From an uncultured bacterium (GTDB lineage: Bacteria; Hydrothermota; Tepidihabitantia; Tepidihabitantales; Tepidihabitantaceae): 27,755 bases of DNA. The notes beneath the pieces were generated by a model. It did no database searches. It worked only from the letters and a program-made list of their open reading frames with translations, and was not told the DNA's origin. The stretch covers positions 1-27,755 of the forward strand of contig CAZVCQ010000002.1 in the NCBI GenBank assembly GCA_964626085.1, read 5' to 3'. Positions 6,558 to 26,929 of this stretch are shown piece by piece (position 1 is the first letter of the stretch; the number at the start of each line of letters is the position of its first letter). Position numbers and translations under genes: made by a program.

Positions 6558-6745
6558 TGTCGGTTGCGGCCGTTGTTCCCCGGCCTGACTTCCCGGCCGG
6601 TGCGGCGGTTCTATCTTCTTGATGATCGAAGACTGCCGGCTCAGGGACCGGATGCTCAGCCGGCGCAGGCTGCCCAGGCTCCCGTCAAACCGCATCTTCG
6701 GGTCCTGGAAGGTCCTGCAGCCGTCGGTCAATCCCGGTTCACGGC

Positions 6746-6774
6746 TTGACAGCGGGCGTCGATTGACCTATTCT
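6746..6774 (+). promoter_or_regulatory. Sigma70-type promoter, predicted leaderless
   Basis: TTGACA-17 bp-TATTCT; ATG at 6783 with no SD sequence. Confidence 0.7.
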
Positions 6775-6782
6775 GACCGCGG

Positions 6783-7478
6783 ATGAGAATCATCCTTCTG
6801 GTCCTTGTGGCCTGCCTGCCCGTGTCCGCCATCCTGTACAACATCGACCAGCCGGTACCCATTTCTCTCGCCCACGCCGAGTACTACGTCAGCGCCCGTC
6901 TCTGGGGCGGCGGCGGGGTATTGATGCGGTTCGGGCTCGGCCTGTTCGACCGGGTCACGCTCGGGATGTCATACGGCGGCAACTACATCATCGGCAGTGC
7001 GTCGCCGCAGTTCTACGGCCGCCACCGGCCCGACTTCCAGGCGCGGCTCGCAATCCTGCAGGAGCAGGGTTACATGCCCAACCTCGTGCTCGGGTTCGAG
7101 AACCAGGGGTACGACGACTACGTTCCGGGAAACGATGCCTACGAGGTGAAGGAGAAGGGTGGCTATCTCTGTGTCGGCAAGACCTTGGACGTAATCCGAA
7201 CTCACTGCCAGTTTGGCATCAACTACTGGGATGGACTCGACGGGTTCGTTGCGTTCAACGCGCTGCTGCCCGGCAATGTCGAGCTGATTGCCGAATACGA
7301 CCCGGCGCTGAACGACCGCAGGGAGGAGCAGAAGAACCCCGGCTTCCTCAACTTCGGCATCGGCTGGACGTTTGCCGACCGGGTCCGGATGGTGCTGGGC
7401 CTGCGCGACGTGCTCGGAAACAGGCCCGATGCAAAGCTCAATCGTACCCTCGATATCTCCCTGAACGACCGCTTCTAG
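6783..7478 (+). CDS. Putative outer-membrane beta-barrel protein (YjbH-like)
   Basis: Signal peptide, alternating amphipathic aromatic strands, and a C-terminal Phe. The family assignment is tentative. Confidence 0.7.
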   Translation: MRIILLVLVACLPVSAILYNIDQPVPISLAHAEYYVSARLWGGGGVLMRFGLGLFDRVTLGMSYGGNYIIGSASPQFYGRHRPDFQARLAILQEQGYMPNLVLGFENQGYDDYVPGNDAYEVKEKGGYLCVGKTLDVIRTHCQFGINYWDGLDGFVAFNALLPGNVELIAEYDPALNDRREEQKNPGFLNFGIGWTFADRVRMVLGLRDVLGNRPDAKLNRTLDISLNDRF

Positions 7479-11472: not shown

Positions 11473-11500
11473 AGTCTAGAATCGGGTTTGGCCAAGTCAA
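11473..11500 (-). promoter_or_regulatory. Sigma70-type promoter for the iscS operon
   Basis: TTGACT-16 bp-TAGACT on the minus strand. Confidence 0.6.
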
Positions 11501-11521
11501 ATCAGGGCCGCGCCGGGTATG

Positions 11522-11917
11522 GCGGAGACGGGCGGCGAAACCGGCGCAAGACCTCGCGCGTTGGTTGCGCCCGCAACCGGTACAGCAACGGGGGCTGCAA
11601 TCGGGGAGATGGTTCGAGGGATGATTGTTCGGACAACGGGGGAGATAGCTCTCGGGAGAATGGGGAGAGCAATGAGGACCGCTACTTGACCCGCAGCGGG
11701 CTGGACTCCGGGCCGGGCAACAGGTAGGACAACGGGTAGAGTGATGGGCCACGCGATGGTCAGAGTGATGGGGCAAGCGGCCGGGGCTATCGTCGTCCAG
11801 ATGACGGGGACGACGACGAGCCAGACAGCCGTGGAGATGACTCGGGCCGCGATTCACCAGACGACTCACCACACGATTGGGGAGACTCTCTACCTCACCA
11901 TTCCCCCTACCATCCCT
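11522..11917. repeat. Degenerate 12-bp periodic array, 33 units
   Basis: Units such as acagcaacgggg, cggacaacgggg, aggacaacgggt, agagtgatgggc, agagtgatgggg and cacacgattggg fit the pattern NNN-RYN-RYN-(G-rich, becoming C-rich at the 3' end). Confidence 0.7.
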
Positions 11918-12022: not shown

Positions 12023-13177
12023 ATGGCGCATCATTCCAAGACCGCGCTCGATTTCGGCCCTGAGTTCAGGGCGAGACTCCGTGAGCTACGGAAGCGACGG
12101 GGGCTTACTCTACGCGCGATGGCGCTGCTGATGGATCGGCAGGGCGTGGGCGCGCACGTACAGCTTGCCCGACTTGAGAAAAGCCAAGTGAAGTATCCGT
12201 CCATCAATCTGATTGCCGACTATCTGCGGGCGTGCGGCGCTGGCTTCGAGGACCTGCTCGACTTGCTGAAGCCGCACACCTCGCAACGACCGGTGCTGAA
12301 GCAGAAGGGTGACGCGGCGGTGGCGGAGTTACTCAAGAGCCTGCCTAAGGCAGAGCAGCGTGCAATGCTCCGGTGGGAGAGGGCCACCGTTGCGGCACGT
12401 GAGGAGAAGGCGGCGGCACAGCCGGAGAAAAAGAAACCGCGGGTCGAGACAGGTAGGCAGCGGGTGTTTCGTATCGTCTGGTCGTTCATCCACGCAAACT
12501 GGAACGAGGTCTTCGAGCAGAAGCTGTACGAGGCGATGCTCAAGGTCAAGGATGAGGTGCCGCGGAGCCGGCGCAGGGACGCCTGCAACTATGGCCGCAG
12601 GTTCTTCGGAATCCTGACCCGGCACTACCGGCACGAGGCGCGCCGAGCGAGCGCTTTGGAGCGGGTCGAGCGCGATACAAGAAAGGCTGGATTCTCGAAC
12701 CAGGTCGTGGCGATGCTGCGCGATGCGGCGAAACAGGCCTACAGGGAACTGCTCTTGTCGGGACGGCTCGACTGGGAGCCGACTCCGGAGGAACTGGTGA
12801 AGAACAGGGGCCGTGCGCCGAAGGTTGAGAGGGCCGAGACACGGCTCGAGATGGACGAGGTCAGGCCGATTGAGGCAGCCAACAAGATGCTTGGCGTCAT
12901 CGATGCGCTGGCGGTGCAGGAAGTCGGTGCGCGTCTGGAGAAGTTGAAGATTGCCCACTACCACGGCCGGGATTACTACATCTTCTGGATTCACGGACTG
13001 ATTCCCATCGCCTACGCGCATGGAACGGATTCGCCGGAGTGGAAAGCAGAGGTCGAGAAGTGGGTGCCGAAGCTGCACGACCCTGAGTTTGCGCGCGAGG
13101 CGGCCAAGATGGTTGCGGACATCTACAACCGCTGGAAGGTCAAGCTGCCGCCGAAGCCGGGCCGAACCGAGGATTGA
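12023..13177 (+). CDS. XRE-family HTH protein with a long uncharacterised alpha-helical C-terminal region
   Basis: N-terminal RARLRELRKRRGLTLRAMA...LARLEK....PS...IADYL.A.G is an XRE HTH. Strong RBS. The remaining ~290 aa were not recognised. Confidence 0.85.
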   Translation: MAHHSKTALDFGPEFRARLRELRKRRGLTLRAMALLMDRQGVGAHVQLARLEKSQVKYPSINLIADYLRACGAGFEDLLDLLKPHTSQRPVLKQKGDAAVAELLKSLPKAEQRAMLRWERATVAAREEKAAAQPEKKKPRVETGRQRVFRIVWSFIHANWNEVFEQKLYEAMLKVKDEVPRSRRRDACNYGRRFFGILTRHYRHEARRASALERVERDTRKAGFSNQVVAMLRDAAKQAYRELLLSGRLDWEPTPEELVKNRGRAPKVERAETRLEMDEVRPIEAANKMLGVIDALAVQEVGARLEKLKIAHYHGRDYYIFWIHGLIPIAYAHGTDSPEWKAEVEKWVPKLHDPEFAREAAKMVADIYNRWKVKLPPKPGRTED

Positions 13178-13179: not shown

Positions 13180-13249
13180 CACAAAGACACAAAGGCACAA
13201 GGAACACCGGGCCGGAATCGACCGCAGATGACGCAGATTGCGCCGAGCG
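13180..13249. repeat. Adjacent 8-bp and 9-bp tandem repeats
   Basis: cacaaaga cacaaagg cacaagga (13180-13203) and cgcagatga cgcagattg cgccgagcg (13223-13249). Confidence 0.65.
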
Positions 13250-13297
13250 GGGACATGACCCAATTCCGCCGGGGAATTGGGATCGTGGCCCAAGCCC
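13249..13297 (-). repeat. Palindromic element, intergenic copy (same family as 26123-26168)
   Basis: Minus strand reads gggcttgggccacgatcc-caattccccggcggaattg-ggtcatgtcccc. Confidence 0.8.
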
Positions 13298-13332: not shown

Positions 13333-13360
13333 TTGACAGCGCCGGAGTCCGGATTAGCAT
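13333..13360 (+). promoter_or_regulatory. Sigma70-type promoter for the secreted-protein array
   Basis: TTGACA-16 bp-TAGCAT. Confidence 0.65.
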
Positions 13361-13408: not shown

Positions 13409-13480
13409 CGGCATCTGCCCTCGGACTTATTCAGGGTTCGGGCCGTGGGCAGTACGCAGTCCGCCGTGGGCCGTCACCAA
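13409..13480 (+). pseudogene. Decayed remnant of a C-terminal sorting domain in the 5' leader of the array
   Basis: RHLPSDLFRVRAVGSTQSAVGRHQ aligns without gaps to the array CTD end (RHLAPGVYFVR from 24329; VRAVSRELSAVSGHK from 24821). It contains five GC-starting heptamers (13442-13476). Confidence 0.55.
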
Positions 13481-13489
13481 GGAGGTAGT

Positions 13490-14326
13490 ATGAAGTTTGC
13501 ATCTGTGCTGTTGGCTATCGGCTGCGTGGTTTCGACTCTCTCGGCCCAGTGGTTGGAAACGACGATATCATTGCCCGACAGCTCCTTGCCTAATGACCTG
13601 TGCTACAACCCGACCGACAACAAGGTCTACGCTGCCAACTGGGGTACGGACAACGTTACGGTCATCGACGGCGCGACCAATACGATCGTCGCCACCATTC
13701 CGACCGCCGCCGAGCCGTCGTACTTCTGCTACAACTCACAGGGCAACAAGGTCTACTGCACGCACTACACGTCCGGCCTGGTTTCGGTCATCGACGCCGG
13801 GGTCGACACCGTGCTTGTGGTGATTCCTGCGGGCCCGTATGCGAGCAGCATCTGCTACAACCCGACCGACAATAAGGTCTACTGCCCGAGCTCCATGAAC
13901 AACAGCGTCTACGTGATCGACTGCGCGGCCGACACGGTCATCGCCAGGATCGCCTGCGGCGACTATGCCTGCGCGATGGTGCACAACCCGGTGCAGAACC
14001 GGGTCTACGTGATGAACCTAAGCGCCAATTCCATCTCGGTCATCCGCGACAGTACGCCGGCGGGAATCGAGGAAGGCCCGATGCCGCGAGCTGCCAGACT
14101 CCGGACGGCTGCCACCATCGTGCGCGGAGAGCTGCGCATGGAGGCTGGCTCAAGCGCAAGCTCAAGCCCAAGCTGGCTGCTGGACGCGGCGGGGCGGAGG
14201 GTCATTGAGCTTCAGGCCGGCGCGAATGACGTGTCCAACCTCGCGCCCGGCGTCTATTTCGTGCGTTCGGAGCCAGGCGCGGTGCTTGATGCGTTAAGCG
14301 CCACCAAGGTCGTGATTCAGAGGTAG
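13490..14326 (+). CDS. Secreted YVTN/YncE-like beta-propeller protein (short form) with C-terminal sorting domain
   Basis: GGAGG RBS and signal peptide at ATG 13490, CYNPTDNKVY...V.VIDG repeats, CTD TIVRG...LLDAAGRRV..L..GANDVS.LAPGVYFV...KVVIQR. Confidence 0.88.
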   Translation: MKFASVLLAIGCVVSTLSAQWLETTISLPDSSLPNDLCYNPTDNKVYAANWGTDNVTVIDGATNTIVATIPTAAEPSYFCYNSQGNKVYCTHYTSGLVSVIDAGVDTVLVVIPAGPYASSICYNPTDNKVYCPSSMNNSVYVIDCAADTVIARIACGDYACAMVHNPVQNRVYVMNLSANSISVIRDSTPAGIEEGPMPRAARLRTAATIVRGELRMEAGSSASSSPSWLLDAAGRRVIELQAGANDVSNLAPGVYFVRSEPGAVLDALSATKVVIQR

Positions 14327-14338
14327 GGAGGAATGACA

Positions 14339-15904
14339 ATGCTGAGAGCGTGTTCATTGCTGTTTGTTTTCGCCGCCGCGGCCATCGCTCAGCCCGATAC
14401 TACCTGGGTGCGCCGCTACGACGGCCCGGGCCACGGCTGGGACGAACCGTCCGTGATGAGGCTGATCGGCGACCGGGTATACGTGGCGGGCCAGAGCCGG
14501 GGCGACGGTTCGGGCTACGACTACGCAACCGTGGTCTATGACCTCGACGGCGACGATCTTTGGTCCGCTCGGTACAACGGGACCGGCAACGACCGTGACG
14601 AGATCACGGATCTCGTTGTCGACAGCGACGGCAACGTCATAGTGACCGGGTACAGCGAGGCCCCCGGCGGCAACTCGAACTGGGTGACCATCAAGTACGA
14701 CCAGAACGGCGACACGCTCTGGCTGGGGCGTCACAACTCAGGCGCCGGGGCTGCGGGAGTAGCGGTCGACGACTCCGGCAACGTCTATGTCACCGGCGGC
14801 GCGGGCAGCTACCCCTACGTCCGCCTCAATACCATTCGCTACGGTCCGGATGGAACCCAGCACTGGCTCGCCGAGTACTACCCGCCGGCACCGAACCGGG
14901 TCAACACGCCACGCGCCATCGCCATCGACCCCAACGGCTGCCCGATTGTCGCCGGCGGAGGCACGAGAGACTCCACCGGCCACGACATCCTCATCATCAA
15001 GTACAACCCGGTGACCGGCGAATCGCTCTGGGTCGCCCGCTACACGTCGTCCGGCGACGAAGGCGATGCCGCAGGCGCGATGGTTCTCGACGCCTCCGGG
15101 AACATCTACGTCACCGGGTATTTCCACGGCGGGACAACCGACCGGGACATCATCACGATGAAGTACTCGCCCGACGGGGCGCTGCTGTGGCTGGACACCT
15201 ACGACGGGCCGAACAACGGTAGTGACGCCGGGGTGGATATCGAACTCGGCGAGGACGGCAACATCTATGTCGCCGGCAACGTCAACCGCGGGTCGTCCAA
15301 CGACGATATGGCAGTCATTAAGTACAACCCGGCGGGAGAGACGCTCTGGGTCAGGCTGTACAACTACCCGACAAACCGCACGCACCGGGCCTACGCCCTC
15401 GCACTCGACGGCGAGAACAACGTCTACGTCTGCGGCTATCTCTGGACCGGGACCTCCTACGACTACCTGACGGTCAAGTACGACACCGACGGCACCGAAT
15501 TGTGGTATGTCCGCTACAACACCTACGAAGGCCAGGAGGACGAAGCCTACGACATCGCCCTCGACGACGCCGGTTTCGTCTACGTCACCGGGCGGGCCAA
15601 GGACTCGCTTAACAACTTCGACTACGCCACCATCAAGTACAGCCAGTTCAGCGGCATCGCGGCAGAGCCGAAGGTGGAAGTCCGAAGAACGAACTGCCCG
15701 ACCATCGTCCGCGGTGTCCTGTTCCTGGACGGGGGCTGTCCCCACACCGGGGCTGTCCCCGAGGCTGCCCTGCTCGACATCTCCGGCCGCAAGGTGCTCG
15801 ACCTCAAGCCGGGCGCCAACGATGTCCGCCACCTCGCGCCCGGTGTCTATTTCGTGACACAGCAGAACATCGGCTGCAGCAAGAAGATCGTTGTGCGAGA
15901 ATAG
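14339..15904 (+). CDS. Secreted SBBP-type beta-propeller repeat protein with C-terminal sorting domain
   Basis: Repeats of W..RY.G....D......D..GN.YVTG......D..TIKY. The second ATG (14339) fits the RBS spacing better than 14333. Confidence 0.88.
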   Translation: MLRACSLLFVFAAAAIAQPDTTWVRRYDGPGHGWDEPSVMRLIGDRVYVAGQSRGDGSGYDYATVVYDLDGDDLWSARYNGTGNDRDEITDLVVDSDGNVIVTGYSEAPGGNSNWVTIKYDQNGDTLWLGRHNSGAGAAGVAVDDSGNVYVTGGAGSYPYVRLNTIRYGPDGTQHWLAEYYPPAPNRVNTPRAIAIDPNGCPIVAGGGTRDSTGHDILIIKYNPVTGESLWVARYTSSGDEGDAAGAMVLDASGNIYVTGYFHGGTTDRDIITMKYSPDGALLWLDTYDGPNNGSDAGVDIELGEDGNIYVAGNVNRGSSNDDMAVIKYNPAGETLWVRLYNYPTNRTHRAYALALDGENNVYVCGYLWTGTSYDYLTVKYDTDGTELWYVRYNTYEGQEDEAYDIALDDAGFVYVTGRAKDSLNNFDYATIKYSQFSGIAAEPKVEVRRTNCPTIVRGVLFLDGGCPHTGAVPEAALLDISGRKVLDLKPGANDVRHLAPGVYFVTQQNIGCSKKIVVRE

Positions 15905-15913
15905 GAGGATTCG

Positions 15914-18454
15914 ATGAAAGTAACTGCGTTCTTTCTGATTCTGATGGCGGCGTTTGTCGCGCTGCCTGAGCCTGCATCTGCAGAGGAATTCCTGATTGAC
16001 GCAAGCTTCGCGTACGAACCTTGCCCGGGCGAGCAGGAACTTCCCGCCGTGGCGTTCGACGGTACCAACCACCTCGTGGTCTGGCGCAACTTCGACGGCA
16101 GTCAGTATGACATCCTCGGCGTCAGGGTCAGCAGCGGCGGCGAGGTTATGGACTCCGCTTTCATCGCCATCGCGGCCGACAGCGGACACCAGCAGGCCCC
16201 GGCGGTCGCGTACGACGGAACGAACTGGCTCGTGGTCTGGCAGGATGCCCCGGCCGGCAACCAGATTCGCGGCGCCAGGGTAGGGCCTGACGGCACCATC
16301 CTTGACCCGGACGGATTTCCAATCCTGGTCGGAGGTGGCAGGCAGCAACCGGCTGTTGCCTTTGACGGAGCCAACTACATGGTCGTATGGGCCGAGATGC
16401 GTGGAGGTAATCGTGATGTTCTCGGTGCCCGCGTTACGCCGGGCGGCGCGGTCCTTGATAGCGCTGGTTTCGTCATATCCGGTGCGGCCAATCATCAGCA
16501 GGCCCCCTCGGTCGCGTTCGGCGCCTCGGGTTATCTCGTTGCCTGGGAGGACTTCCGGAGCGGAAGCGGCTTCGATTTGTACGCGGCCCGGGTGACAACG
16601 GCGGCGCAAGTGCTCGACACAGCCGGGATTGTCATGTCGGCGGCGGCAAATACGCAGTCCGGCTCCGCGGTCGCGTTCGACGGGACCAACTATCTTGTCG
16701 CTTGGGACGACATACGCAACGGCTACAATCCGGATGTATTCGCGACCCGCGTCAGCCAGGACGGTACGGTGCTCGACCCGGACGGAATCGCGGTTTCCAG
16801 AACCCCCTACGGTGACCAGTGGGGGGTGGCGGTGGCGTTTGACGGGACGAACTTCCTTGCGGTCTGGTCCGACTACTACCTTCGTGAAATCTACGGTGCA
16901 CGGGTTTCGTCCGCCGGCGCGGTGCTCGACACGCTCGGGTTCGCCGTCTCCCACGGCTACGACAACTCCGACCTCTACCCGGCAATAGGGTTCGACGGGG
17001 CCGACTACTTCGTCGCATGGCAGTACAAGTACAACACCCACTACGACATCCACGCCGCGCGGGTCACGCCCGGCACCACGGTGCTGGACCCGACCGGCAT
17101 CGTCATCACCCGCGGCGCCCCGGTGGCTTACTACGAGTTCAACCCGGCGGTCGCCTCGAACGGTACCGACTACCTCGTCGTCTGGGATGACTCCCGTCGA
17201 AACGAGGCCGACATCTTCGGCGCGCGGGTCAGCCAGGGCGGCAGCGTGCTGGACCCGACCGGCATCGCGATATCCTTCGCTGAGGAGAACCAGGACTATC
17301 CCTCAGTCGCCTTCGGCAGTTCGAACTACCTTGTGGTCTGGGAGGACGAGCGCGACGGTGGCAGCGAGGACATCTACGCCGCGCGGGTCAGCCCGAACGG
17401 AATGCTCCTCGACCCGGCCGGCATCGCGATATCCATGGCCGACGGCGTGCAGGAGGATGCGCAGGCTGCGTTTGACGGGACCAACTTCCTGGTAGTGTGG
17501 CAGGACTACCGGAATACGCACTCCGACATATACGGGGCGCGTGTCAGCCCGGGCGGCCTCGTGCTTGATACTGCGGGCATACCGGTTGCGGGTCTGCAGT
17601 CGGCAGAGGAAGACGCTTCGGTTACGTTCGGCGGCACCAACTACCTGGTGGTCTGGGAGGACTACCGGGATGCGGACGCTGACATCTATGCCGCACGGGT
17701 GAGCCCGGCTGGCTCGGTGCTGGACCCAACCGGGTTCGCGGTCGCAACGGCAGGAGAGGACCAGTGCTTTCCGGTGGTCGCGTTCGACGGAACCAACTAC
17801 CTGGTGGTATGGCATGATGCGCGGGGCGCTTCAGACAACGACATCTACTGTGCCCGGGTCACGACGGCGGGCTCGGTGCTCGACCCGGACGGCATCGCGG
17901 TGTGCACCTCGGCTGAGAACCAGGAGTACGCGAGTGTCGCGTTCGACGGGACCGACTACCTGATTGCCTGGGAGGACTACCGCAACGATCCAGATACGTG
18001 TGACGTCTACGGCGCGCGGGTCAGTACAGCGGGCGCCGTGCTCGCACGCTTCCCGGTGTCGGTCCACGCGAACTGGCAGTGCGACCCGGCTCTTGCCCGA
18101 GGCGCTGGCAGCCAGGTCCTGACCGTGTTCACCGGTTGGGTCGACGAGCACCAGGGTAGCAACTACGACGCCGAGCGAACCTGGGGCACATTCGACATGG
18201 CTGGCGTAGCCGAGCACCCGACGTCCGCGGTGACCGGCTCACTGCCCGTTGCGACCGTCGTGCGTGGAATCCTGCGGCTGCCCGGAGCCCCGACCTCGGT
18301 CCCTAGGTCCTTTGCCTGTCTGCTAGATGCCTCCGGCCGGAAGGTGTTTGATCTGGAGCCCGGGCCGAACGATGTGAGCCGGCTGGCGCCGGGCGTGTAC
18401 TTCGTCAGAACCAATCAAGAGAAGCGACTGCAGAGAATAGTCATCGTCAAATAA
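15914..18454 (+). CDS. Large secreted repeat protein (PAVAFDGTNYLVVW repeats, probable beta-propellers) with C-terminal sorting domain
   Basis: About 12-13 repeats of P.VAFDGTNYLVVW.D.R....DIYGARV...G.VLDP.GI; signal peptide and CTD. Confidence 0.88.
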   Translation: MKVTAFFLILMAAFVALPEPASAEEFLIDASFAYEPCPGEQELPAVAFDGTNHLVVWRNFDGSQYDILGVRVSSGGEVMDSAFIAIAADSGHQQAPAVAYDGTNWLVVWQDAPAGNQIRGARVGPDGTILDPDGFPILVGGGRQQPAVAFDGANYMVVWAEMRGGNRDVLGARVTPGGAVLDSAGFVISGAANHQQAPSVAFGASGYLVAWEDFRSGSGFDLYAARVTTAAQVLDTAGIVMSAAANTQSGSAVAFDGTNYLVAWDDIRNGYNPDVFATRVSQDGTVLDPDGIAVSRTPYGDQWGVAVAFDGTNFLAVWSDYYLREIYGARVSSAGAVLDTLGFAVSHGYDNSDLYPAIGFDGADYFVAWQYKYNTHYDIHAARVTPGTTVLDPTGIVITRGAPVAYYEFNPAVASNGTDYLVVWDDSRRNEADIFGARVSQGGSVLDPTGIAISFAEENQDYPSVAFGSSNYLVVWEDERDGGSEDIYAARVSPNGMLLDPAGIAISMADGVQEDAQAAFDGTNFLVVWQDYRNTHSDIYGARVSPGGLVLDTAGIPVAGLQSAEEDASVTFGGTNYLVVWEDYRDADADIYAARVSPAGSVLDPTGFAVATAGEDQCFPVVAFDGTNYLVVWHDARGASDNDIYCARVTTAGSVLDPDGIAVCTSAENQEYASVAFDGTDYLIAWEDYRNDPDTCDVYGARVSTAGAVLARFPVSVHANWQCDPALARGAGSQVLTVFTGWVDEHQGSNYDAERTWGTFDMAGVAEHPTSAVTGSLPVATVVRGILRLPGAPTSVPRSFACLLDASGRKVFDLEPGPNDVSRLAPGVYFVRTNQEKRLQRIVIVK

Positions 18455-18463
18455 GGAGGTACC

Positions 18464-19840
18464 ATGAAGTTCGCAACCGTGCTGCTGGCCGTATGCTGTT
18501 TGCTGTCAGCCACGTCGGCACAGTGGCTGGAGACGACGATATCATTGCCCGCCAGTTCCTGGCCCAATGATCTGTGCTACAACCCAACCGACAACAAGGT
18601 CTACTCTGCCAACTACAACATCGGCAGCATCACAGTCATCGACGCCGCGACCAATGCGATCGTCGCCACCATTCCGACCGCCGCCGAGCCGTCGTACTTC
18701 TGCTACAATTCACAGGGCAACAAGGTCTACTGCACTCACTACAGCGACAGCCTTGTGACGGTAGTCCACGGCACCGGTGACAGCGTCATAACGACGTTTC
18801 GAGCCGGACTGAACGCAAGCAGCATCTGCTACAACCCGCAGGACAACAAGGTCTATTGCCCGAATTCCTCAAGCGACAGCGTCTTCATAGTCGACGCTGC
18901 GGCCGACACCGTCATCGCCGTCGTCGGCACGGGCGACATTCCGAAGCAGCTCTGCTACAATCCGACCGACAACAAGGTCTACTGCTCGAACGTCGGCGAC
19001 AGGACCGTGACGGTGATTGACGGCGCGGGCGACACCGTCATTGCTACGGTCGCGGCCGGCTCCGCGCCCGGCGTCATGGTCCACAATGTCCTGAATGACA
19101 TGGTCTACGTCGCCAACGCGGGCGGTGACAGCGTCATGGCTATCGATGGCGCGGCGGACACCGTCATCGCCACCATCCCGACCGGCGACGTGCCCCGCGC
19201 CCTGTGCTTCAATCGGGAGTACAACAAGGTCTACTGCGCGAACGCCGGCAGCGACAACATCTCGGTCATCGACTGCGCCACCAACGCTGTCATCGCCACG
19301 GTCCCGGCGGGCGACGCGCCCTTTGCGATTCTGAGCAACGACGTCAACAACACCGTGTACTGCTCGAACTCGACCAGCGACGAAGTCGTGGTTGTCGACT
19401 GTGCCGCCGATTCGGTCATCGCCAGAATCGCGTGCGGCGACTACGCCAGCCTGATGGCGCACAACCCGGTGCAGAACCGCGTCTACGTGCTGAACATAGA
19501 CGACAATTCCATTTCGGTCATTCGCGACAGTATGCCGGCGGGAGTCGAGGCGGACCCCACGCCGCAGGCCGCAAGTCACAAGCCCGCGGCTACTATCGTC
19601 CGCGGAGTGCTGGACCTGGGAGTAGGCAGTAGACAGCAGGCAGTAGACAGGGCGGCACTGTCTGACAGGGGTCGCTGCGGCCAACTGCTGGATGCGACGG
19701 GGCGGAAGGTCGCGGAGCTTCACCCCGGCGCGAATGATGTGAGCGGGTTGGCGCCGGGCGTGTACTTTGTCCGTGTGCAGCTGGCCGTCGGCCCCGCGCT
19801 GTCAGCCGCAAGCAGCTACAAGGTCGTAATCCACAAATAG
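18464..19840 (+). CDS. Secreted YVTN/YncE-like beta-propeller protein (long form) with C-terminal sorting domain
   Basis: Paralog of the 13490 gene with about four extra CYN..NKVYC repeats. Confidence 0.88.
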   Translation: MKFATVLLAVCCLLSATSAQWLETTISLPASSWPNDLCYNPTDNKVYSANYNIGSITVIDAATNAIVATIPTAAEPSYFCYNSQGNKVYCTHYSDSLVTVVHGTGDSVITTFRAGLNASSICYNPQDNKVYCPNSSSDSVFIVDAAADTVIAVVGTGDIPKQLCYNPTDNKVYCSNVGDRTVTVIDGAGDTVIATVAAGSAPGVMVHNVLNDMVYVANAGGDSVMAIDGAADTVIATIPTGDVPRALCFNREYNKVYCANAGSDNISVIDCATNAVIATVPAGDAPFAILSNDVNNTVYCSNSTSDEVVVVDCAADSVIARIACGDYASLMAHNPVQNRVYVLNIDDNSISVIRDSMPAGVEADPTPQAASHKPAATIVRGVLDLGVGSRQQAVDRAALSDRGRCGQLLDATGRKVAELHPGANDVSGLAPGVYFVRVQLAVGPALSAASSYKVVIHK

Positions 19841-19849
19841 GGAGGAATG

Positions 19850-21061
19850 ATGACCAAGAACGTATTTCTGTTGGTGCTTGTGCTGGCGGTCGCCGGGACC
19901 GCACGGGCTGATTCGCTCAACTGCCGGGGGCTCGGGCGCTTTGACACACCGGGTCTGGCCGTTGGTGTGGCGGTGTCCGGGAACTACGCATACGTGGCGG
20001 ATGGGGATTCGGGGTTGCGTATCATCGACGTGAGTAATCCGGGAAGTCCGTTTGAGGCAGGGCACCAGGCAACGCCTGGCTATGCCCGCCGTGTGGCGGT
20101 ATCCGGGAACTACGCATATGTGGCGGCCGCGGATTCGGGCCTGCGCATTGTTGACGTAAGCAGCCCGCAAAGCCCGCATGAAGCCGGGCACTACGTCACG
20201 CCGAGTTGGGCCTATGTCGTGGCGGTGTCGGGCGACTTTGCCTACGTTGTGGACGAAGATACGCTGCGCATCATTGACGTGAGTAATCCGCAGAGCCCGG
20301 CTGAGGTCGGGCGTTTCGGCGACCCGGGCTTTGCCTTTGCCGTGGCCGCGTCCGGGAACTACGTCTATTTGGCGGACGACAACCAGGGACTGCGCATCAT
20401 CGACGTGAGTAACCCGCAAAGTCCGTACGAGGCCGGCTACCACATCACATCGGACTGGGCCTATGGCGTGGCGGTATCCGGCAGCTTCGCCTATGTGGCT
20501 GCCCGCTCCGCGGGACTGTGCATCATCGACGTTAGCAACCCGCAGAGTCCGTATGAGACCGGTTCCTACGCCGTCATGGCCACCGGCGCGGCGGTGTCCG
20601 GCAACTTCGTCTACGTCGTGGACGGTTCTGCAGACCTGTACGTCATCAACGTGGGTGACCCGCAGAGCCCGAGTGAGGCGGGGCACTATGGCACTCCGGG
20701 TACCCCATGTGTCGTGGCCGTGTCCGGGAACCTCGCCTATGTCGCGGACTGGGATTCGGGCCTGAGCATCATCGAGTTCTACGGTGCGGGGATTGAGGAA
20801 GTGCCGCTCGCCGAAGTACGAGCGGCGGATCCGATGCCGACGGTTGTGCGTGGGGTGCTGGTGCTCGGCGCTGTAGGCAGTAGACAGAATACAGAATACA
20901 GGGGAGGACTTATGGATGCGGCGGGGCGGAAGGTGATGGAGCTTCACGCCGGCGCGAACGATGTGAGCGGGCTGGGCCCGGGCGTGTACTTTGTGCGTGC
21001 GGAGCAGGCACAAGCCCAAGCTCAAGCGCAGGCAATCCGCAGGGTCATGATCGTGAGATAA
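19850..21061 (+). CDS. Secreted LVIVD-repeat protein with C-terminal sorting domain
   Basis: About seven repeats of [11 protein letters not shown]....GL.IIDVSNP.SP.E.G. The start could be 19847 or 19850. Confidence 0.9.
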
Positions 21062-21070
21062 GGAGGACTC

Positions 21071-23953
21071 TTGAAGCGTAGCATTTTCATCGCGCTGTTG
21101 GTTTCGTTCACTTCCGCGCGGGCGCCGGTCGAGAACTGGGTCAGTCACTACAACCGGGTCAACAGCGACGACGAGGGTCTCGTCCTTGCGACTGATGCCG
21201 CGGGTAGCGTCTACGTTGCCGGTCGGAGCTGGGGACCGAACCACGACCCGGCCCTCCTGACGGTGAAGTACGATTCGACCGGTGGCGAGGTCTGGACCGC
21301 GCGGTTCGACGAGGCGGGCATCGACGCCCCGGCCGCGATTGCGGTTGATGCGTCCGGCAACGTCTACGTGACCGGGCAGGCGGGGCAGGCGGTGAACAAG
21401 TCCGACCTCATCACGTTGAAGTATTCGCCGTCCGGTGCGGAGTTGTGGCGCAGCCGCTACTCGGATCCGTCCGACGCGAGCGACGTGGCGGCGGGGATTG
21501 CGCTCGCGCCCGACGGTGCGGTCTACGTCCTCGGTTCGAGCTGGATGCCCGGGGGTTGTGCGGTCGTGCTCGTCCGCTACAGCTCGACCGGGACCGAGGA
21601 GTGGGTGAGCCGGTTCTTCCCTAAGGATTCAACCTGGAACTGCGGCCGGGCGGTGGCGGCGGACGCGGGCGGCGCGTGGGTTGCCGGCGCTTCGGACGGC
21701 AGCTACCTCGTGATGCGTTACCGCGCGAACGGTGACACCGCCTGGGTCCGGTACTACAGCGGGGCCGGACAGGGCGACGCCCGCGGCCTGGTGCTTGACG
21801 GCTCGGGCGTGGTCGTCACCGGCCAGCTCGTCACGTCGGGCATGGACCTTGACTATGTGACGGTGCGGTTCGATTCGAGCGGGCAGAGCGACTGGTCCGC
21901 GGTCTACGACGGTCCGGCCCACAGTCACGACCAGGCCTACGCAATCTGCCGCGATTCGGCGGGCGGCATCTATGTCACCGGCCGCACCCAGGCTTCGCTG
22001 CGCAACGTCGACTACGCCACCGTCAAGTACTCGCCGTCCGGCAGCCAGCGCTGGGTCGCGCTCTACTCCGGTCCGGATACCGCCGGAACCGACGTGGCCT
22101 GGGCGGTGGCTTCGGGTCCGCACGGCCGGGTCTGCGTCACCGGCCAGAGCTGGTCCGACGTGGCGGCTGAGGATTTCGACTACGCCACCGTCTGCTATGA
22201 CACCGGCGGTACCCGGCGCTGGGTCGACCGCTATTCCGGGACCGGCGGGGGACGCGACGAGGCGGTCTGCCTGGGGTTCACGCGGTCCGGGCGGGTGGTG
22301 GTCAGCGGCCGCAGCCTCAATGCGTCCGGGGATTTCGATTTCGTCACGATCGCTTTCGACACCGCCGGCGGCCGGGCGTGGCTGGCGACGTACGCCGGGC
22401 CGGGCGGTCCGGGCACCGGCGGCGAGTCCGGGCTCGCAATCGGCCGCGACCGGTCGAGCAATCTCTATGTGTCGGGCGGAGACGCGCAGGACGTCATCAC
22501 CGTGAAGTACGACGCCGGGGGCAATGAGCTGTGGCAGCGGGTTTATGACGGCGGCAGCCGCGGCATCGACGCCTGGCGGGGGATGACCGTGACCGAGGAC
22601 GGCGACGTCCGGGTCCTGTCCCGGAGCCAGGTCCCGCTGCCGGCTCCGCTGACAACCGTCTACGCGGTCGCGCGCTACTCACCGGACGGCGACGAACGCT
22701 GGGTCGCAACCTACTTCGGCCCGGACAGCACCGACGCGGACCCGGTCGCGCTCTGCACCGACGCCTCGGGAAACAGCTACGTGACCGGCGGCGTGCTCGA
22801 CTCGTTCACCGTCGCCTGGCACACCATCAAGATCGACTCGACCGGCGCCCGGCGGTGGCTCGCGGTGATGAGCCGGACGGATACACTCCAGCTTTACTCC
22901 AACCCGCGCTGCATCGCGGCCGACGACAACGGCTACGTCTACGTCGGCGGCGAACAGGACAGCCTCGGCGGGTTCGAAGACATGATGCTGATTCGCTACC
23001 GGCCCGACGGCGGCGAGGACTGGCGCGCCCGCTACGCCGGCCCGGGCCTCGGCATCGACCTGCTCCAGTGCCTGGTCGTGGACGCGGCGGGCAACGCCTT
23101 TGCCAGCGGCCAGAGTTGGGACTCCGTCACCGGCTACAATTTTGCGACCATCCGGTTCACCCCGACCGGCGAGACCGCCTGGGTCCGACGCTACGCCGGG
23201 CCGGGCGGGCTGAGCAATGAAGACAAGCCGTGCGCCGTGGCGCTGGACGACTCGGGCAACGTCCTCGTGACCGGGTCGAGCTGGGCGGATTCCTCGATGG
23301 ACTACCTCACCGTCAAGTACGCGCCGGACGGGCAACAGCTCTGGACCGCGCGCTACGACGGTTCCGGGCATCACACCGACGTGCCAACCGCGGTCACGGC
23401 CGACCGCGCCGGCAACGTCTACGTCACCGGCTACGGGTGGCAGGATGGAACGCTCTGGGATTATACCACCGTGATGTACTCGGCTGGCGGCGCGGAGCGT
23501 TGGTCGCTCAGGTATCACGGAACCGGCAACTACTACGACAAGTCGCTTGGCCTCGTTGTCGAGGACTCGATGCACCTATGGGTCACCGGTGCGAGCGTGG
23601 CCGCGGGCCAGAACTCAGACATGGTGACCATCTACTACGGTCCGGACCCGGGCCTGGCCGGTGCCGAACCGGTGTCGATGCGGGCCCGGCTGATGGTTCG
23701 TCCCGGCATCGCGACGCGTCGGGTCAGCGCCGCGCTCTTTCTGCCGACCGGCGGATCGGTCCGGCTCGGCATCTACGATTGCAGTGGCCGGCTCGTCCGG
23801 TTGTTCGTCGAGGCCGAACTGCTGCGGGGACGTCATGACTTCTCCTGGAACGGCGTCGACGAACGCGGCCGCCGCTGCCCGGCCGGCGCTTATTTCATCC
23901 GGGTGAACACGCCGTCCGGCCCGGCGGTCGAACGCGTCGTCTTCATCCGCTAG
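21071..23953 (+). CDS. Large secreted SBBP-type beta-propeller repeat protein with FlgD-Ig-like C-terminal domain
   Basis: Tandem W...Y.G...D....A.D..GN.YVTG repeats. The CTD IYDCSGRLVR...FSWNGVDERGRRCPAGAYFIR differs from the other CTDs. TTG start with AGGAGG RBS. Confidence 0.88.
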   Translation: MKRSIFIALLVSFTSARAPVENWVSHYNRVNSDDEGLVLATDAAGSVYVAGRSWGPNHDPALLTVKYDSTGGEVWTARFDEAGIDAPAAIAVDASGNVYVTGQAGQAVNKSDLITLKYSPSGAELWRSRYSDPSDASDVAAGIALAPDGAVYVLGSSWMPGGCAVVLVRYSSTGTEEWVSRFFPKDSTWNCGRAVAADAGGAWVAGASDGSYLVMRYRANGDTAWVRYYSGAGQGDARGLVLDGSGVVVTGQLVTSGMDLDYVTVRFDSSGQSDWSAVYDGPAHSHDQAYAICRDSAGGIYVTGRTQASLRNVDYATVKYSPSGSQRWVALYSGPDTAGTDVAWAVASGPHGRVCVTGQSWSDVAAEDFDYATVCYDTGGTRRWVDRYSGTGGGRDEAVCLGFTRSGRVVVSGRSLNASGDFDFVTIAFDTAGGRAWLATYAGPGGPGTGGESGLAIGRDRSSNLYVSGGDAQDVITVKYDAGGNELWQRVYDGGSRGIDAWRGMTVTEDGDVRVLSRSQVPLPAPLTTVYAVARYSPDGDERWVATYFGPDSTDADPVALCTDASGNSYVTGGVLDSFTVAWHTIKIDSTGARRWLAVMSRTDTLQLYSNPRCIAADDNGYVYVGGEQDSLGGFEDMMLIRYRPDGGEDWRARYAGPGLGIDLLQCLVVDAAGNAFASGQSWDSVTGYNFATIRFTPTGETAWVRRYAGPGGLSNEDKPCAVALDDSGNVLVTGSSWADSSMDYLTVKYAPDGQQLWTARYDGSGHHTDVPTAVTADRAGNVYVTGYGWQDGTLWDYTTVMYSAGGAERWSLRYHGTGNYYDKSLGLVVEDSMHLWVTGASVAAGQNSDMVTIYYGPDPGLAGAEPVSMRARLMVRPGIATRRVSAALFLPTGGSVRLGIYDCSGRLVRLFVEAELLRGRHDFSWNGVDERGRRCPAGAYFIRVNTPSGPAVERVVFIR

Positions 23954-24111
23954 TTCCGTCGACCGTCCGGTCTGGCGATTCGCCCAAACCCGTTCACCGC
24001 CAGGTAAGCCTGGAATGCGATGGTCCGTGCGGCGGCGAGCGGGAGGTTCTCTTGAGCACCGGACTGCTTGCGGCGGTGCTGGCAGCAGTCCGTTCGAAGC
24101 AGCGTGCCCTG

Positions 24112-24244
24112 TATCACTGGATCGGCAAGGACCGGACAGGAAAGGAGGTGTGCGGGGGTGTACCTGGCCGAGTTGGACAGAGGAGACCGGTCGGAGACCG
24201 TCCGACTGGTGAAGATGCGCTCGCCGGGTTCGGGAGTACGATAG
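24112..24244 (+). pseudogene. Frameshifted orphan FlgD-Ig-like CTD remnant
   Basis: YHWIGKDRTGKEVC(G), then a frameshift in the G5 run at 24154-24158, then VYLAELDRGDRSETVRLVKMR...TAG followed directly by GAGG. Confidence 0.65.
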
Positions 24245-24277
24245 GAGGAAAGGGTGAGAGCATTCGCAGCATCGAGC

Positions 24278-24305
24278 TTGACAGCGGTGCGGCGGGGACT
24301 ATGAT
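24278..24305 (+). promoter_or_regulatory. Internal sigma70-type promoter
   Basis: TTGACA-16 bp-TATGAT, 23 nt before ATG 24329. Confidence 0.65.
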
Positions 24306-24328
24306 GAGCCGAAATCGACAGGGCTAGG

Positions 24329-24811
24329 ATGAAACGACATTCACAACTCCGCGCCAACATCACTATCGTCGTGGGCATCGTCGTGCTGTGCGTCAGCACC
24401 GCCACCGGCGAGCTGTGGAAGACGACCGACACCGGGACGATCTGGCTGCGGGAGAACACCTGCACCAACTGGGCGCTGTACGATGCCGGTTTCCCGGAGC
24501 CGGGGACCGGCTACGCGGTCGGCGCGGTCGATGTAGTCATCAAGACCGGCTACGGCGGGGCGGTCGAGGATGAATGCCCGCTGCAGTGGCCGCACTCCCC
24601 TATGCCTGCGACCTTGCTCTCCGGAGCCGCGTTCAGACTGCCGGGCAACCGAGCGGCTCGATTCCTCGACATCTCAGGCTGGAAGGTCGCAGAGCTGGTA
24701 CCGGGCGTGAACGACGTCCGGCATCTGGCGCCCGGCGTGTACTTTGTGCGTCTGGCATCAAGCGTAATGCGTGATGCGTCGGGCGTGTCCAAGGTCATGA
24801 TTCTGAAATAG
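24329..24811 (+). CDS. Short secreted protein: signal peptide, single BNR/YCF48-like repeat and C-terminal sorting domain (probably an internally deleted gene)
   Basis: LWKTTDTG..W and FP..GTGYAVG...V.IKTG.GG followed by a full CTD. Confidence 0.7.
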   Translation: MKRHSQLRANITIVVGIVVLCVSTATGELWKTTDTGTIWLRENTCTNWALYDAGFPEPGTGYAVGAVDVVIKTGYGGAVEDECPLQWPHSPMPATLLSGAAFRLPGNRAARFLDISGWKVAELVPGVNDVRHLAPGVYFVRLASSVMRDASGVSKVMILK

Positions 24812-24820
24812 GGAGGAACT

Positions 24821-26323
24821 GTGAAGCGTATGGTCGTCGTTGTGCTGCTGCTGGCGCTGGGAATTGCCGTGGCCTGGGGTCCGGACACCAGGCTGACAGA
24901 CAATTCCTATTCCGACAATACCTACTGGAGCTGCCAGCGCCGCGTCGCCGTGGACTCGGGAGGCCGAATCCACGTCATCTGGTACGTGATGAACTCCGGG
25001 CTCGGTACCTATCGGTTCCAGGTCTACTACAAGCGGTTCAATCCCGGCACGGGCTGGACCCAGGACACAATGCTCAGCGGGGACCTCTATGCCGACAGCA
25101 CCCACAACAAGTACCCGGCGATTGCGGTTGATTCGTCCGGCCTTGTCATCGCGGCCTGGGGCAGCGACACGTCGGAGAATGCCGACGCCTTCATCTACTA
25201 CAAGACCTGTCTGCCTGAGGGCTCAGGCAACGGCGGCTGGGACGCAACCTCGCGGCTCCTGTCCAGCTCGGGTCCTGACTTCACCCGCGAATGTCCCAAC
25301 CTTGCCGCGACGCCGGATGGTCACGTCCACGCGGTATGGAAGGAGGTCAAGCCGGGCGGCGGCATCTGCGTGGCCTATCGCGAGCTTATCGACACGGTCT
25401 GGCAGGCGCAGGCTGACCTCGAACTGAACTCCAACTACAAGGTCTACCCGGCAGTCGCGGGCGGGCCGGACAACAGCGTGCACGTGGTCTGGCACGGCCG
25501 CAGCGGCCCGAGCGGCTACTACAACGTCTGGTACAAGGCCCGGAACGACACGACGTGGGGAGCGATGGAGAACGTCTCTAACGGCGCCCGGCATCAGATG
25601 AATCCCTCAGTCACCGCAAACCCGGTGACGAGCGAACCGCACGTGCTCTGGCAGGGGCAGGACGCGAACGGGACCGGGCGAGCCATCCACGCGTATCGGA
25701 CCGCGGCCGGCTGGCAACCGCGCGACACGGTATCCGAGCCCGGCCTCGAATACGGGCAGGGCACCGGCCAGATTGCGTTCACTCCGGATGGGCTTGGCCA
25801 CGCGGTCTGGGAAGGCGAGAGCGATTCCTCTCCAACCGTCGGCCAGATTCGCTACAGCCGGCGGTCGGTCATGGGAACCTGGAGCGCGCCGGAGAACATC
25901 ACAGCGGCAACGAACACGCGCGAGCGCCCGTCCATAGCAAACGGCGGCAACTCCGCCTCGCCGTTCGACCTCCATCTTGTCTGGTCCGACTACCGCGACG
26001 GCAACTCGGAGATGTACTACAAGCATGATTCCATCGTCCTGGCCATCGGTGAGGGCGTGAGACCGGCGGTCTGGAACACGTGGCCCGCGGCGAGTCTTGT
26101 CCGCGGTGTGCTGGTACTGCGCGGGCTTGGGACACGATCCGGATTGTCGGACAATCCGGTCATGTCCCGCGCAGTGCTGCTGGACGCGGCGGGGCGGAAG
26201 GTCATAGAGCTTCATGCCGGTGCGAATGATGTGAGCCGGCTGGCTCCCGGCGTCTACTTCGTCCGGGCCGTCAGCCGTGAGCTGTCGGCTGTGAGCGGTC
26301 ACAAGGTCGTGATTCAGCGGTAG
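24821..26323 (+). CDS. Secreted beta-propeller protein (HVVW repeats, BNR/sialidase-like fold) with C-terminal sorting domain
   Basis: Repeats of P.IA.D..G..HVVW....YY....W; GTG start with GGAGG RBS; CTD. Confidence 0.85.
   Translation: MKRMVVVVLLLALGIAVAWGPDTRLTDNSYSDNTYWSCQRRVAVDSGGRIHVIWYVMNSGLGTYRFQVYYKRFNPGTGWTQDTMLSGDLYADSTHNKYPAIAVDSSGLVIAAWGSDTSENADAFIYYKTCLPEGSGNGGWDATSRLLSSSGPDFTRECPNLAATPDGHVHAVWKEVKPGGGICVAYRELIDTVWQAQADLELNSNYKVYPAVAGGPDNSVHVVWHGRSGPSGYYNVWYKARNDTTWGAMENVSNGARHQMNPSVTANPVTSEPHVLWQGQDANGTGRAIHAYRTAAGWQPRDTVSEPGLEYGQGTGQIAFTPDGLGHAVWEGESDSSPTVGQIRYSRRSVMGTWSAPENITAATNTRERPSIANGGNSASPFDLHLVWSDYRDGNSEMYYKHDSIVLAIGEGVRPAVWNTWPAASLVRGVLVLRGLGTRSGLSDNPVMSRAVLLDAAGRKVIELHAGANDVSRLAPGVYFVRAVSRELSAVSGHKVVIQR
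26123..26168 (+). repeat. Palindromic element inserted in frame within a CTD
   Basis: gggcttgggacacgatcc-ggattgtcggacaatcc-ggtcatgtccc, read as GLGTRSGLSDNPVMS. Confidence 0.8.
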
Positions 26324-26332
26324 GGAAGTGCC

Positions 26333-26929
26333 ATGAAGTCGAGACTTGTCCTGGTCGGGGTTAGTTGTCTTATGGCCGTGACTGTCCCGCGTGTTCAGGC
26401 GCAGGAAAGGTCGCGAGCGGAGGTGTATGCGCTTGAGGGGCTCGGCACATTGCCCGGCATCGCCGGATGCGGTTGTCTGGGAGTGGGCTTTGCGTTTGTG
26501 GGGGCGTGGATCTGGTGGGGGAACGACAACCCGGGTCAAAACTCGGGTGCGGGTGCGTATTCACTGGCGCTGGTCTCTGCCGCCGCCTTGCCGGCTGCCG
26601 CAGCATACGGTGCGGCCAAGGTCGGTGAAGGACTCAGCGAGGGCGGGTCGAGGGGCTGGGCCTTCGGCGGAGCATACGTTGGGGCGCTGGCACTCGGCGG
26701 CCTTGGTTTCTTCTTGCACCGTCAGGCGGTAGGAGCTTTCATCGGGTGGGCCGCCGGCTCAATGGTGGGAGCGGTGGTTGGCTACAACATCGGGATCAAG
26801 CATGACGTGTCGCCCTTCGGCTTCGACAGCAGGCTGCGGCCGCCGAGCGTGGCGCTGACGAGTGTCGAGCTGCCTGACCATTCGGTTGAGTATGGGGTGA
26901 AGGTCCAACTGGCCGGGCTGAGGTTCTGA
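26333..26929 (+). CDS. Hypothetical Gly/Ala-rich membrane protein
   Basis: Signal-like N-terminus, several glycine-zipper-like hydrophobic segments, and a C-terminal Phe. Confidence 0.75.
   Translation: MKSRLVLVGVSCLMAVTVPRVQAQERSRAEVYALEGLGTLPGIAGCGCLGVGFAFVGAWIWWGNDNPGQNSGAGAYSLALVSAAALPAAAAYGAAKVGEGLSEGGSRGWAFGGAYVGALALGGLGFFLHRQAVGAFIGWAAGSMVGAVVGYNIGIKHDVSPFGFDSRLRPPSVALTSVELPDHSVEYGVKVQLAGLRF

Follow-up and report, generated by a model that had tools for sequence, protein, structure and literature searches.

Secreted-protein gene array of an uncultured WOR-3 bacterium, probably turned over by homologous recombination in a shared C-terminal domain

We describe an array of nine genes, A1 to A9, which occupies positions 13487–26929 (+ strand) of a 27.8 kb stretch of DNA. 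This stretch, called the window throughout, is the entire contig C2 of the metagenome-assembled genome (MAG) G000, whose host is an uncultured bacterium of candidate division WOR-3 from a lake; the window DNA was matched in lake-water metagenomes. Seven of the nine genes end in one type of C-terminal domain (CTD), placed behind otherwise differing portions, the passengers, and most genes are separated from the next by a short joint in which stop codon and Shine–Dalgarno sequence (SD) meet. We consider it quite likely that the array is a secreted-protein family turned over by ordinary homology-driven recombination in the CTD-coding sequence. Orthologs in related genomes are mosaics with breakpoints inside the CTD and the joint, gene content differs between relatives, and CTDs and passengers have separate histories within G000. 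The array clearly exemplifies a known type of gene-family evolution; it is no new cassette machine.

Results

The MAG G000 comprises 3.5 Mb in 661 contigs (62% G+C, 75% completeness). Its 2994 genes were called with a simple in-house codon-model caller, and same-strand neighbours were compared. The comparison set consisted of ten other species of the same genus, each with about 50–60 LVIVD matches; the nearest relative, G009, contributes the contig L020 (G009:C140). The genes of the array are:

13487–14326, + strand: A1, short YVTN propeller, 279 amino acids (aa), with signal peptide and CTD
14333–15904, + strand: A2, SBBP/delta-60 propeller with CTD; G009 ortholog 91% identical
15914–18454, + strand: A3, 846-aa repeat (lectin/propeller-like) protein with CTD; G009 ortholog 79% identical, with a hybrid CTD
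18464–19840, + strand: A4, YVTN propeller with CTD; missing from the G009 array
19847–21061, + strand: A5, LVIVD propeller with CTD
21071–23953, + strand: A6, 960-aa SBBP protein with a FlgD_ig-type CTD (PF13860, 33.9 bits, above the cut-off)
24329–24811, + strand: A7, 160-aa relic with signal peptide, one TTDGG-type propeller blade and CTD
24821–26323, + strand: A8, BNR-like propeller with CTD; ortholog anchor, 55–87% identical in relatives
26333–26929, + strand: A9, Gly-rich membrane or outer-membrane-like protein without CTD, behind a 9-nt joint to A8

Comparison with L020 places the breakpoints. This contig aligns to the window in three blocks, namely L020 1726–5956 with window 14178–18405 (87.6% identity), 5875–6042 with 20913–21080 (89%) and 6002–7454 with 24790–26263 (85%), which overlap on L020 by 82 and 41 nt. 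In G009, the A3 passenger carries a hybrid CTD, its 5' part from A3 and its 3' part from A5, and leads directly into A8, while A4, the A5 passenger, A6 and A7 are missing from the array. Seen from the other side, the window holds two segments that G009 does not, one that starts at the A3 CTD end, takes in A4 and finishes with the A5 passenger, the other made up of A6, the gap and A7, and both are bounded by CTD or joint homology. A four-way alignment follows the switch base by base: L020 agrees with the A3 CTD until the LLDA codons are reached (95 of 102 positions), past which it follows the A5 CTD (119 of 130 positions, compared with 72 of 130 for the A3 CTD), and the final part, beginning with the last three codons and the stop, is that of the A7-to-A8 joint (30 of 30 positions).

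A second mosaic involves the CTD of A1, which in G009 is borne by a 480-aa BNR-like passenger; the two genes are unrelated before the LLD codons and, from these codons on, across the joint and into A2, about 96% identical. The 3' half of the A5-type CTD is found on an LVIVD passenger in G000, on the A3 passenger in G009 and on a 406-aa passenger in G001. The segments concerned are:

14178–14335, + strand: A1 CTD 3' half and joint; on another passenger (BNR-like, 480 aa) in G009, with identity starting at the LLD codons
20913–21080, + strand: A5 CTD 3' half, joint and first 10 nt of A6; 89% identical in G009, where it lies between A3 and A8
24790–24832, + strand: joint travelling with A8, made up of the last ~6 codons of the preceding CTD, stop, SD and start

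Breakpoints were mapped to the CTD's LLD motif and to a short stretch that begins ~20 nt before the CTD ends and continues over stop and SD into the first codons. Four or more positions are involved, namely the start of the CTD, its LLD motif, and about −20 and about −9 from the stop. We therefore find mosaic orthologs with breakpoints inside a shared module, as is characteristic of a multigene family with ectopic recombination or gene conversion.

The surroundings of these breakpoints differ from species to species. The left flank, from a gene for a cyclic-nucleotide-binding protein to NifU and IscS, is syntenic at 73–98% amino-acid identity in 4–9 genomes, and the gene content after IscS is different in each relative compared. 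In G002, IscS is followed by a 273-aa gene, a single 539-aa CTD gene, an A8 ortholog (70%) and then a TonB-dependent receptor (86%); this locus has neither A1–A7 nor A9, nor the helix-turn-helix (HTH) gene that heads the array in the window. Other CTD genes follow IscS in G009, G003, G006 and G008, and mostly unrelated genes follow it in G007 and G005. The gene directly upstream of A8 is A7 in the window, A3 in G009, a full-length 405/406-aa A7 homolog in G001 and G003 and an LVIVD gene in G006, and in G002 a promoter takes this place. Between A8 and the receptor there is nothing in G002, a 77-aa open reading frame (ORF) in G001, A9 in the window and four genes in G004; A9 is missing in G001 and G002. 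Across the seven genomes with an A8 ortholog, upstream genes and CTD tails vary. Whatever precedes it, A8 keeps a ~30-nt leader (last CTD strand codons, stop, SD, start) in the six genomes whose contigs reach upstream, and its CTD tail is different in all six orthologs with a recovered 3' end. The 405/406-aa A7 homologs of G001 and G003, which are 80% identical to each other, likewise have different CTD tails. The original prediction had proposed that recombination through the CTD–stop–ribosome-binding-site (RBS) block adds, deletes and swaps genes, with gene-order turnover among relatives and breakpoints in CTDs. Both expectations are borne out, and a stable gene order was not found.

One contig of metagenome run X1 (760 nt) carries a co-occurring A8 variant, 95.5% identical, which fits the window only downstream of 24832, whereas its other 115 nt do not fit. 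It may represent a strain with a different gene upstream of A8 and a break at the joint.

Within G000, passenger family is scattered over the tree of CTDs. A hidden Markov model (HMM) built from the seven window CTDs retrieved about 100 CTD ORFs, i.e. about 3% of the genes, many of them in arrays on other contigs (C16, C65, C60, C41, C58 and others) in which neighbours lie one in-frame stop apart. Clustering of the passengers gave 34 YVTN and 13 LVIVD members, several small families and singletons. Mapped on a tree of 72 CTDs, passenger family changes 31 times, compared with a minimum of 5 and a mean of 35.1 after shuffling, and members of three to five passenger families occur together in well-supported CTD clades. 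A single clade of CTDs from LVIVD genes is rejected by the approximately unbiased (AU) test (log-likelihood difference 114, p = 0.0018). The mean CTD DNA identity is 0.684 for pairs of the same passenger family and 0.683 for pairs of different families, CTD identity does not follow the identity of the adjoining passengers (r = −0.015), and paralogs with passenger ends 84–96% identical have CTDs that are just 66–74% identical, which is background level. Judged from these comparisons, CTD and passenger histories are uncoupled within G000, in line with the incongruence that had been anticipated. In families of this sort, orthology and gene trees based on the CTD are unreliable, since the tag has a history separate from that of its cargo.

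Contig C65 offers a closer view of such an exchange. Its adjacent SBBP and LVIVD genes have a perfect tract of 114 nt in common, and by eye their CTDs are near-identical over ~230 nt, ending 9 nt before the stop; two LVIVD duplicates on the same contig do not differ until the first CTD strand, from where they diverge. We read the tract as a recent conversion tract with its ends inside the CTD. Over all CTD pairs, exact matches of at least 20 nt occur in 222 of 3403 pairs (at least 25 nt in 84), and the matches of at least 20 nt concentrate at the GANDV..PGVYFVR and LLDAAGR codons.

The layout of the array itself agrees with much of what had been predicted. Eight signal-peptide genes, A1–A8, plus A9 are packed with gaps of 6, 9, 9, 6, 9, (375), 9 and 9 nt in order, i.e. 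of 6 or 9 nt except for the 375-nt gap, and N-termini resembling Sec signal peptides (K/R start, hydrophobic run, A-x-A-like end) are seen by inspection in nine of nine genes. The fold families change along the array as proposed: YVTN, SBBP/delta-60, repeat lectin-like, YVTN, LVIVD, SBBP, one-blade relic and BNR-like. One CTD type is shared by seven genes; A6 has a FlgD_ig-type CTD and A9 has none. In A1–A5, A7 and A8 the CTD consists of the core LLDAAGRKV.EL..GANDVS.LAPGVYFVR, a variable linker and the last strand KVVI.R.

All joint motifs were found where the original prediction had placed them: TAGGGAGGAA at 14324, 19838 and 24809, TAGGAGG at 15902 and 24242, TAAGGAGG at 18452 and 21059, and TAGGGAAG at 26321. 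The 13-mer TAGGGAGGAATGA stands at the ends of both YVTN paralogs, and only there (14324 and 19838). Fusion of the stop to the SD is not equally frequent elsewhere in the genome; it occurs at 26 of 61 junctions after CTD genes (~43%) compared with 29 of 1567 after other genes (~2%), an odds ratio of 39. Among gaps of 0–15 nt, exactly 9 nt are found in 25 of 30 cases after CTD genes and in 26 of 195 after others, where a 4-nt overlap is the commonest arrangement (117 cases). The TAG-GAGG-N5-ATG joint is also present between plainly unrelated ordinary genes of G000. Stop–SD fusion is consequently the organism's general design for tight junctions, about 20 times commoner behind CTD genes, and no special site.

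The 25 nine-nucleotide joints show what the spacer belongs to. Its similarity tracks that of the downstream gene's first 60 nt (Mantel r = 0.19, p = 0.01), its correlation with the upstream CTD is not significant (r = 0.09–0.12), and no correlation exists between the end of the upstream CTD and the gene downstream. This is the reverse of the linkage that had been suggested for testing, in which RBS and spacer travel with the upstream CTD. Because the spacer follows the downstream gene, the moving unit comprises SD–spacer, signal peptide, passenger and CTD, often together with the last codons of the previous CTD. The 9-nt gap is kept although the SD begins one base earlier or later (TAGGAGG in contrast to TAAGGAGG or TAGGGAGG), which argues that the joint descended by copying and not by independent tuning of SD spacing. 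Copying of the joint along with the cassettes is the simplest explanation. All short gaps of the array are multiples of three, so that the genes share one frame with single stops between them, and this one-frame layout probably stems from copying of the joint, too. At the array joints the SD adjoins or overlaps the stop of the upstream gene and the gap is about 10 nt or shorter, as in translationally coupled operons, and this geometry would fit translational coupling.

The same single-frame layout with single stops and 6- or 9-nt gaps was seen on C16 and C65 of G000 and at the loci L020, L021, L024 and L026, at ~20 of 21 junctions in related loci. Beyond this genus, arrays with this CTD and with joints of 9 nt were also seen in three further genera of the family, G014, G012 and G018 (G+C content 52% to 64%). 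Read-through of the stop codons into fusion proteins was considered and nothing was found in its support; every gene comes with a signal peptide and a terminal tag of its own, and the stops include all three codons.

Discussion

We propose that the CTD-coding sequence, present in ~100 copies, some with exact tracts of 20–114 nt in common, serves as substrate for general homologous or homeologous recombination. Unequal crossover and gene conversion, within CTDs and within the stretch from the last strand over stop and SD to the first codons, would delete, duplicate or replace whole genes, and the same recombination at CTD or joint would re-tail passengers with other CTDs. As the breakpoints lie inside the tag, every product would remain a complete, translatable and, presumably, exportable gene. 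The outcome would be a secreted or surface protein repertoire that turns over fast between conserved flanks, whatever selective benefit this may confer on the cell.

Several observations weigh against this explanation. All mapped events lie between species-level genomes (~12% diverged), and each may be a gain or a loss. In four metagenome runs, covered as low-depth assembled contigs, neither a reliable rearranged joint nor a circular form was found. Identity between typical CTD pairs is ~68%, and their longest exact match has a median of 11 nt, so that most pairs are poor RecA substrates and events must be rare. The gene calls of G000 come from a crude in-house caller, and paralogous junctions are statistically non-independent. 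Finally, the CTD lies below the Pfam and NCBIfam thresholds and its AlphaFold model is poor (pLDDT 55), for which reason export by the type IX secretion system (T9SS) can only be put forward as a prediction; of the T9SS components, GldM was not found in the 75% complete MAG, and control genomes gave no response in that search either.

Apart from these points, the data bearing on export are as follows. PF18962 (Por_Secre_tail) matches 18 of 22 CTDs weakly (best E 0.004, 16 bits compared with a cut-off of 27), and TIGR04183 reaches 16–17 bits compared with a cut-off of 23 in three genes; among the window CTDs, only A6 passes a related curated model (FlgD_ig, PF13860). The AlphaFold2 model of the CTD, made from a 22-sequence alignment, has five strands and a mean predicted local distance difference test score (pLDDT) of 54.7, too low a score for fold searching. 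Among PDB sequences, a profile search with the CTD gave no match, and a literature search on WOR-3 and type IX secretion found no paper. G000 encodes homologs of SprA (382 bits) and PorV (34 bits), both above the curated cut-offs. We therefore describe the CTD as T9SS-type-A-like, without assigning it as a member, and suggest T9SS as the candidate export route.

It is also conceivable, albeit rather doubtful at present, that the CTD 3' half together with the in-frame 9-nt joint is a selected universal adaptor, by which promoterless cassettes for secreted proteins are exchanged between arrays, and perhaps between genomes, through homology alone. If such an adaptor existed, cassettes would land translatable, coupled and exportable, and the system would be an integrase-free functional counterpart of the integron that diversifies the surface proteome of a whole WOR-3 family.

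An explanation that dispenses with recombination would regard the array as a plain operon of diverged tandem duplicates, in which selection on export and translation keeps CTDs and joints alike. It could draw on the TAG-GAGG-N5-ATG joints between unrelated ordinary genes, on a CTD DNA identity of mostly ~68% and on the stability of the array in all four metagenome runs. However, neighbouring genes belong to different fold families, G009 has the hybrid A3/A5 CTD, one CTD 3' half sits on three passengers in three genomes, two unrelated adjacent genes have a 114-nt identical tract, near-identical paralogs bear unrelated CTDs, and the 9-nt gap stays fixed despite the one-base shift of the SD, which points to descent of the joint and not to tuning of spacing. 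We consider this explanation improbable.

Even less probable, in our view, is a dedicated cassette system, in which a site-specific recombinase, perhaps the array HTH protein, would cut at the stop–SD joint and move promoterless cassettes, possibly as circles. The uniform joint, promoterless cassettes behind a head promoter, the cassette content varying between relatives and the multi-copy HTH gene at several array heads would all suit such a system, but the breakpoints fall at no fewer than four positions and not at one site, the spacer beyond the SD is not conserved, and the same joint is used in ordinary operons. The joint measures just 6–9 nt, and seven joints fold no better than shuffled sequences (z from −1.85 to +2.03), with no attC-like fold. 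Four matches to PF00589 (tyrosine recombinase) in G000 lie on other contigs (C645, C148, C487 and C22), with none in the window or on the named CTD-array contigs checked. No evidence supports the HTH protein as a recombinase; in Pfam and in an atlas search it matched only XRE-type DNA-binding families. The notion of an integron-like array consequently survives in part: variable promoterless cassettes are there, and integrase and attC are missing as had been claimed, but the likeness is only a loose analogy, with general recombination in place of a dedicated system.

That assemblers jumped between CTD repeats and made the arrays and their differences chimeric, as the 661 contigs of the MAG, the many CTD genes at contig ends and the origin of some relatives from co-assemblies might suggest, is the least credible explanation, given that no exact match among the window's own CTDs exceeds 23 nt, a length below that of the k-mers assemblers normally use, that single-run contigs of four samples bridge all but one junction among the pieces listed with at most 1 mismatch, and that the independent assemblies G009, G001 and G003 agree on the A8 leader and on an AEQAQ-type CTD upstream of A8. 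For this check, contigs assembled at low depth from four single lake runs, not raw reads, were placed on the array. The A1–A2, A3–A4, A4–A5, A5–A6, A6–gap–A7, A7–A8 and A8–A9 junctions are bridged; the A2–A3 junction is not bridged among the pieces listed and is collinear with the independent G009 contig. Taken together, this shows that the window contig is not chimeric. Short-sided joints among YVTN repeats (90% likeness) also occurred in metagenome contigs, were flagged as unreliable and were not accepted as rearrangements.

Scars are present at two places of the array:

13439–13482, + strand: ghost CTD tail in the A1 leader; it abuts the SD of A1, with last strand and stop deleted
23954–24328, + strand: decayed cassette (the 375-nt gap), recognised by translation; it contains a putative promoter for A7–A9 at 24278–24305

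The ghost before A1, reported earlier as a decayed CTD end, holds up: 34 of 44 bases align to a CTD tail of G000, with a score of 43 compared with 21.6 ± 2.4 in shuffles. A general CTD DNA profile (nhmmer) misses it, and a subtype-specific alignment was needed. Another ghost CTD end lies behind the promoter in the A8 leader of G002 (nhmmer E 0.003). The 375-nt gap contains a stranded TAGGAGG with a signal-peptide stub and probably holds a broken FlgD-type CTD; the remnant has a weak blastx match to a G000 CTD (E 0.39), and Pfam gave no match to the 23954–24328 remnant with X at the breaks. A7, with its single blade, is a relic from the 406-aa propeller family.

Comparable systems are known. 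For the KLIKK protease array of Tannerella forsythia, the authors suggest genes fused to shared signal-peptide and C-terminal sequences (PMC4404884), and domain rearrangements are described for the surface factors rgpA, kgp and hagA of Porphyromonas gingivalis (PMC5266723). As in these cases, unrelated or diverged functional parts here have a common signal peptide and a very similar C-terminal secretion domain, and shared modules recombine. In contrast to them, the present family has ~100 members, belongs to a phylum outside Bacteroidota, carries a CTD below curated thresholds and is polycistronic with a 9-nt in-frame stop–SD–start joint, and its breakpoints were mapped to the LLD motif and the joint by comparison between species. 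A conserved coding handle of homology, arrays that vary between relatives and ghosts of displaced modules are also found in the orphan toxin-module arrays of Rhs and contact-dependent inhibition (CDI) systems (PMC3967940), in effector displacement in Vibrio cholerae's type VI secretion system (T6SS) (PMC5361080) and in tandem type VII secretion system (T7SS) immunity paralogs, which evolve by homologous recombination (PMC9484751). Here, however, the handle is a 3' export tag and not a 5' delivery region, the modules are complete genes with their own SD, most of them in one transcription unit and not silent spares, and no toxin or immunity function is indicated.

Integron arrays resemble the present one in being tightly packed, with mostly promoterless ORFs behind a head promoter and a content varying between relatives. 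They differ in that intI and attC are absent here, breakpoints lie inside coding repeats and general recombination acts on an evolutionary time scale. With translationally coupled operons, including those of ordinary G000 genes, the array has in common that the stop overlaps the next SD at gaps of 6–9 nt, whereas the frequency of fusion (~43% after CTD genes, ~2% elsewhere) and the dominance of the 9-nt length set it apart. What is particular to the G000 array is how large the family is, how its genes are packed polycistronically with one invariant in-frame joint, that this is conserved across genera and that breakpoints were mapped at base level. WOR-3 bacteria are uncultured. The locus gives a base-resolution view of the turnover of a secreted repertoire, and recombination inside the export tag would be a concrete and testable mechanism for rapid secretome evolution without mobile-element enzymes.

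Additional features of the locus

Two further features precede the array:

12023–13177, + strand: HTH gene, XRE-type, 384 aa, at the array head; Pfam HTH_31 only
13333–13360, + strand: sigma-70-like putative promoter TTGACA-16-TAGCAT for A1–A6

The interval between iscS and the HTH gene (11497–11917) has no called gene. The HTH gene is present in 6 copies in G000, and copies lie beside arrays in G001, G006 and G007; its protein is possibly a regulator of the array. It combines an XRE-type HTH with a C-terminal part of ~300 aa, adjoins CTD arrays in several genomes and has at most 12 matches per genome. Copies were located on C27, C81 and C460 of G000, at L026 2377–3549 and at L019 594–1751.

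Promoter-like sites with 10–11 of 12 consensus bases occur in the array only at 13333 and 24278, of which 24278–24305 has 11 of 12, while weaker 9/12 matches lie inside the array. From this, two operon-like transcription units, A1–A6 and A7–A9, are predicted. A special portable promoter common to A1 of G000 and A8 of G002 was considered and rejected, as the form corresponds to the genome-wide TTGACA-N16/17-TAnnAT consensus with 137 promoter-like sites. The promoter-like element TTTGACATCCCCGCCCGCGAGTCCTAGAATCC has ~15 near-identical copies in G000 (e.g. on C24, C34, C36, C197, C245, C261, C508 and C566), 26–270 nt (mostly 35–140 nt) upstream of called gene starts, and forms a repeated promoter module.

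Small repeats are likewise associated with CTD genes. An identical segment of 48–52 nt bearing (GAGGTT)n directly follows three CTD stops in G000 (C541, C620 and C299), and a palindromic element of 47 nt is common to two CTD regions (C58 and C163), with a similar palindrome seen by eye upstream of A1 at ~13240–13290. Both may be small mobile or repeat elements that use CTD loci.

Two genes of the array deserve separate mention. A1 and A4 are paralogs whose sequences agree at 78.6% over the first 467 nt, counted from 8 nt before the ATG. A1 is the shorter by 504 nt, equivalent to four 42-aa YVTN repeats, which fits unequal recombination between repeats. Gly-rich membrane proteins like A9 recur at array ends (L024 2884–4380, in two copies; L028 1318–1998; L013 15574–16185), where they end in ...AGLRF, an outer-membrane-like C-terminal Phe, and sit just before a TonB-dependent receptor or beside a CTD gene.

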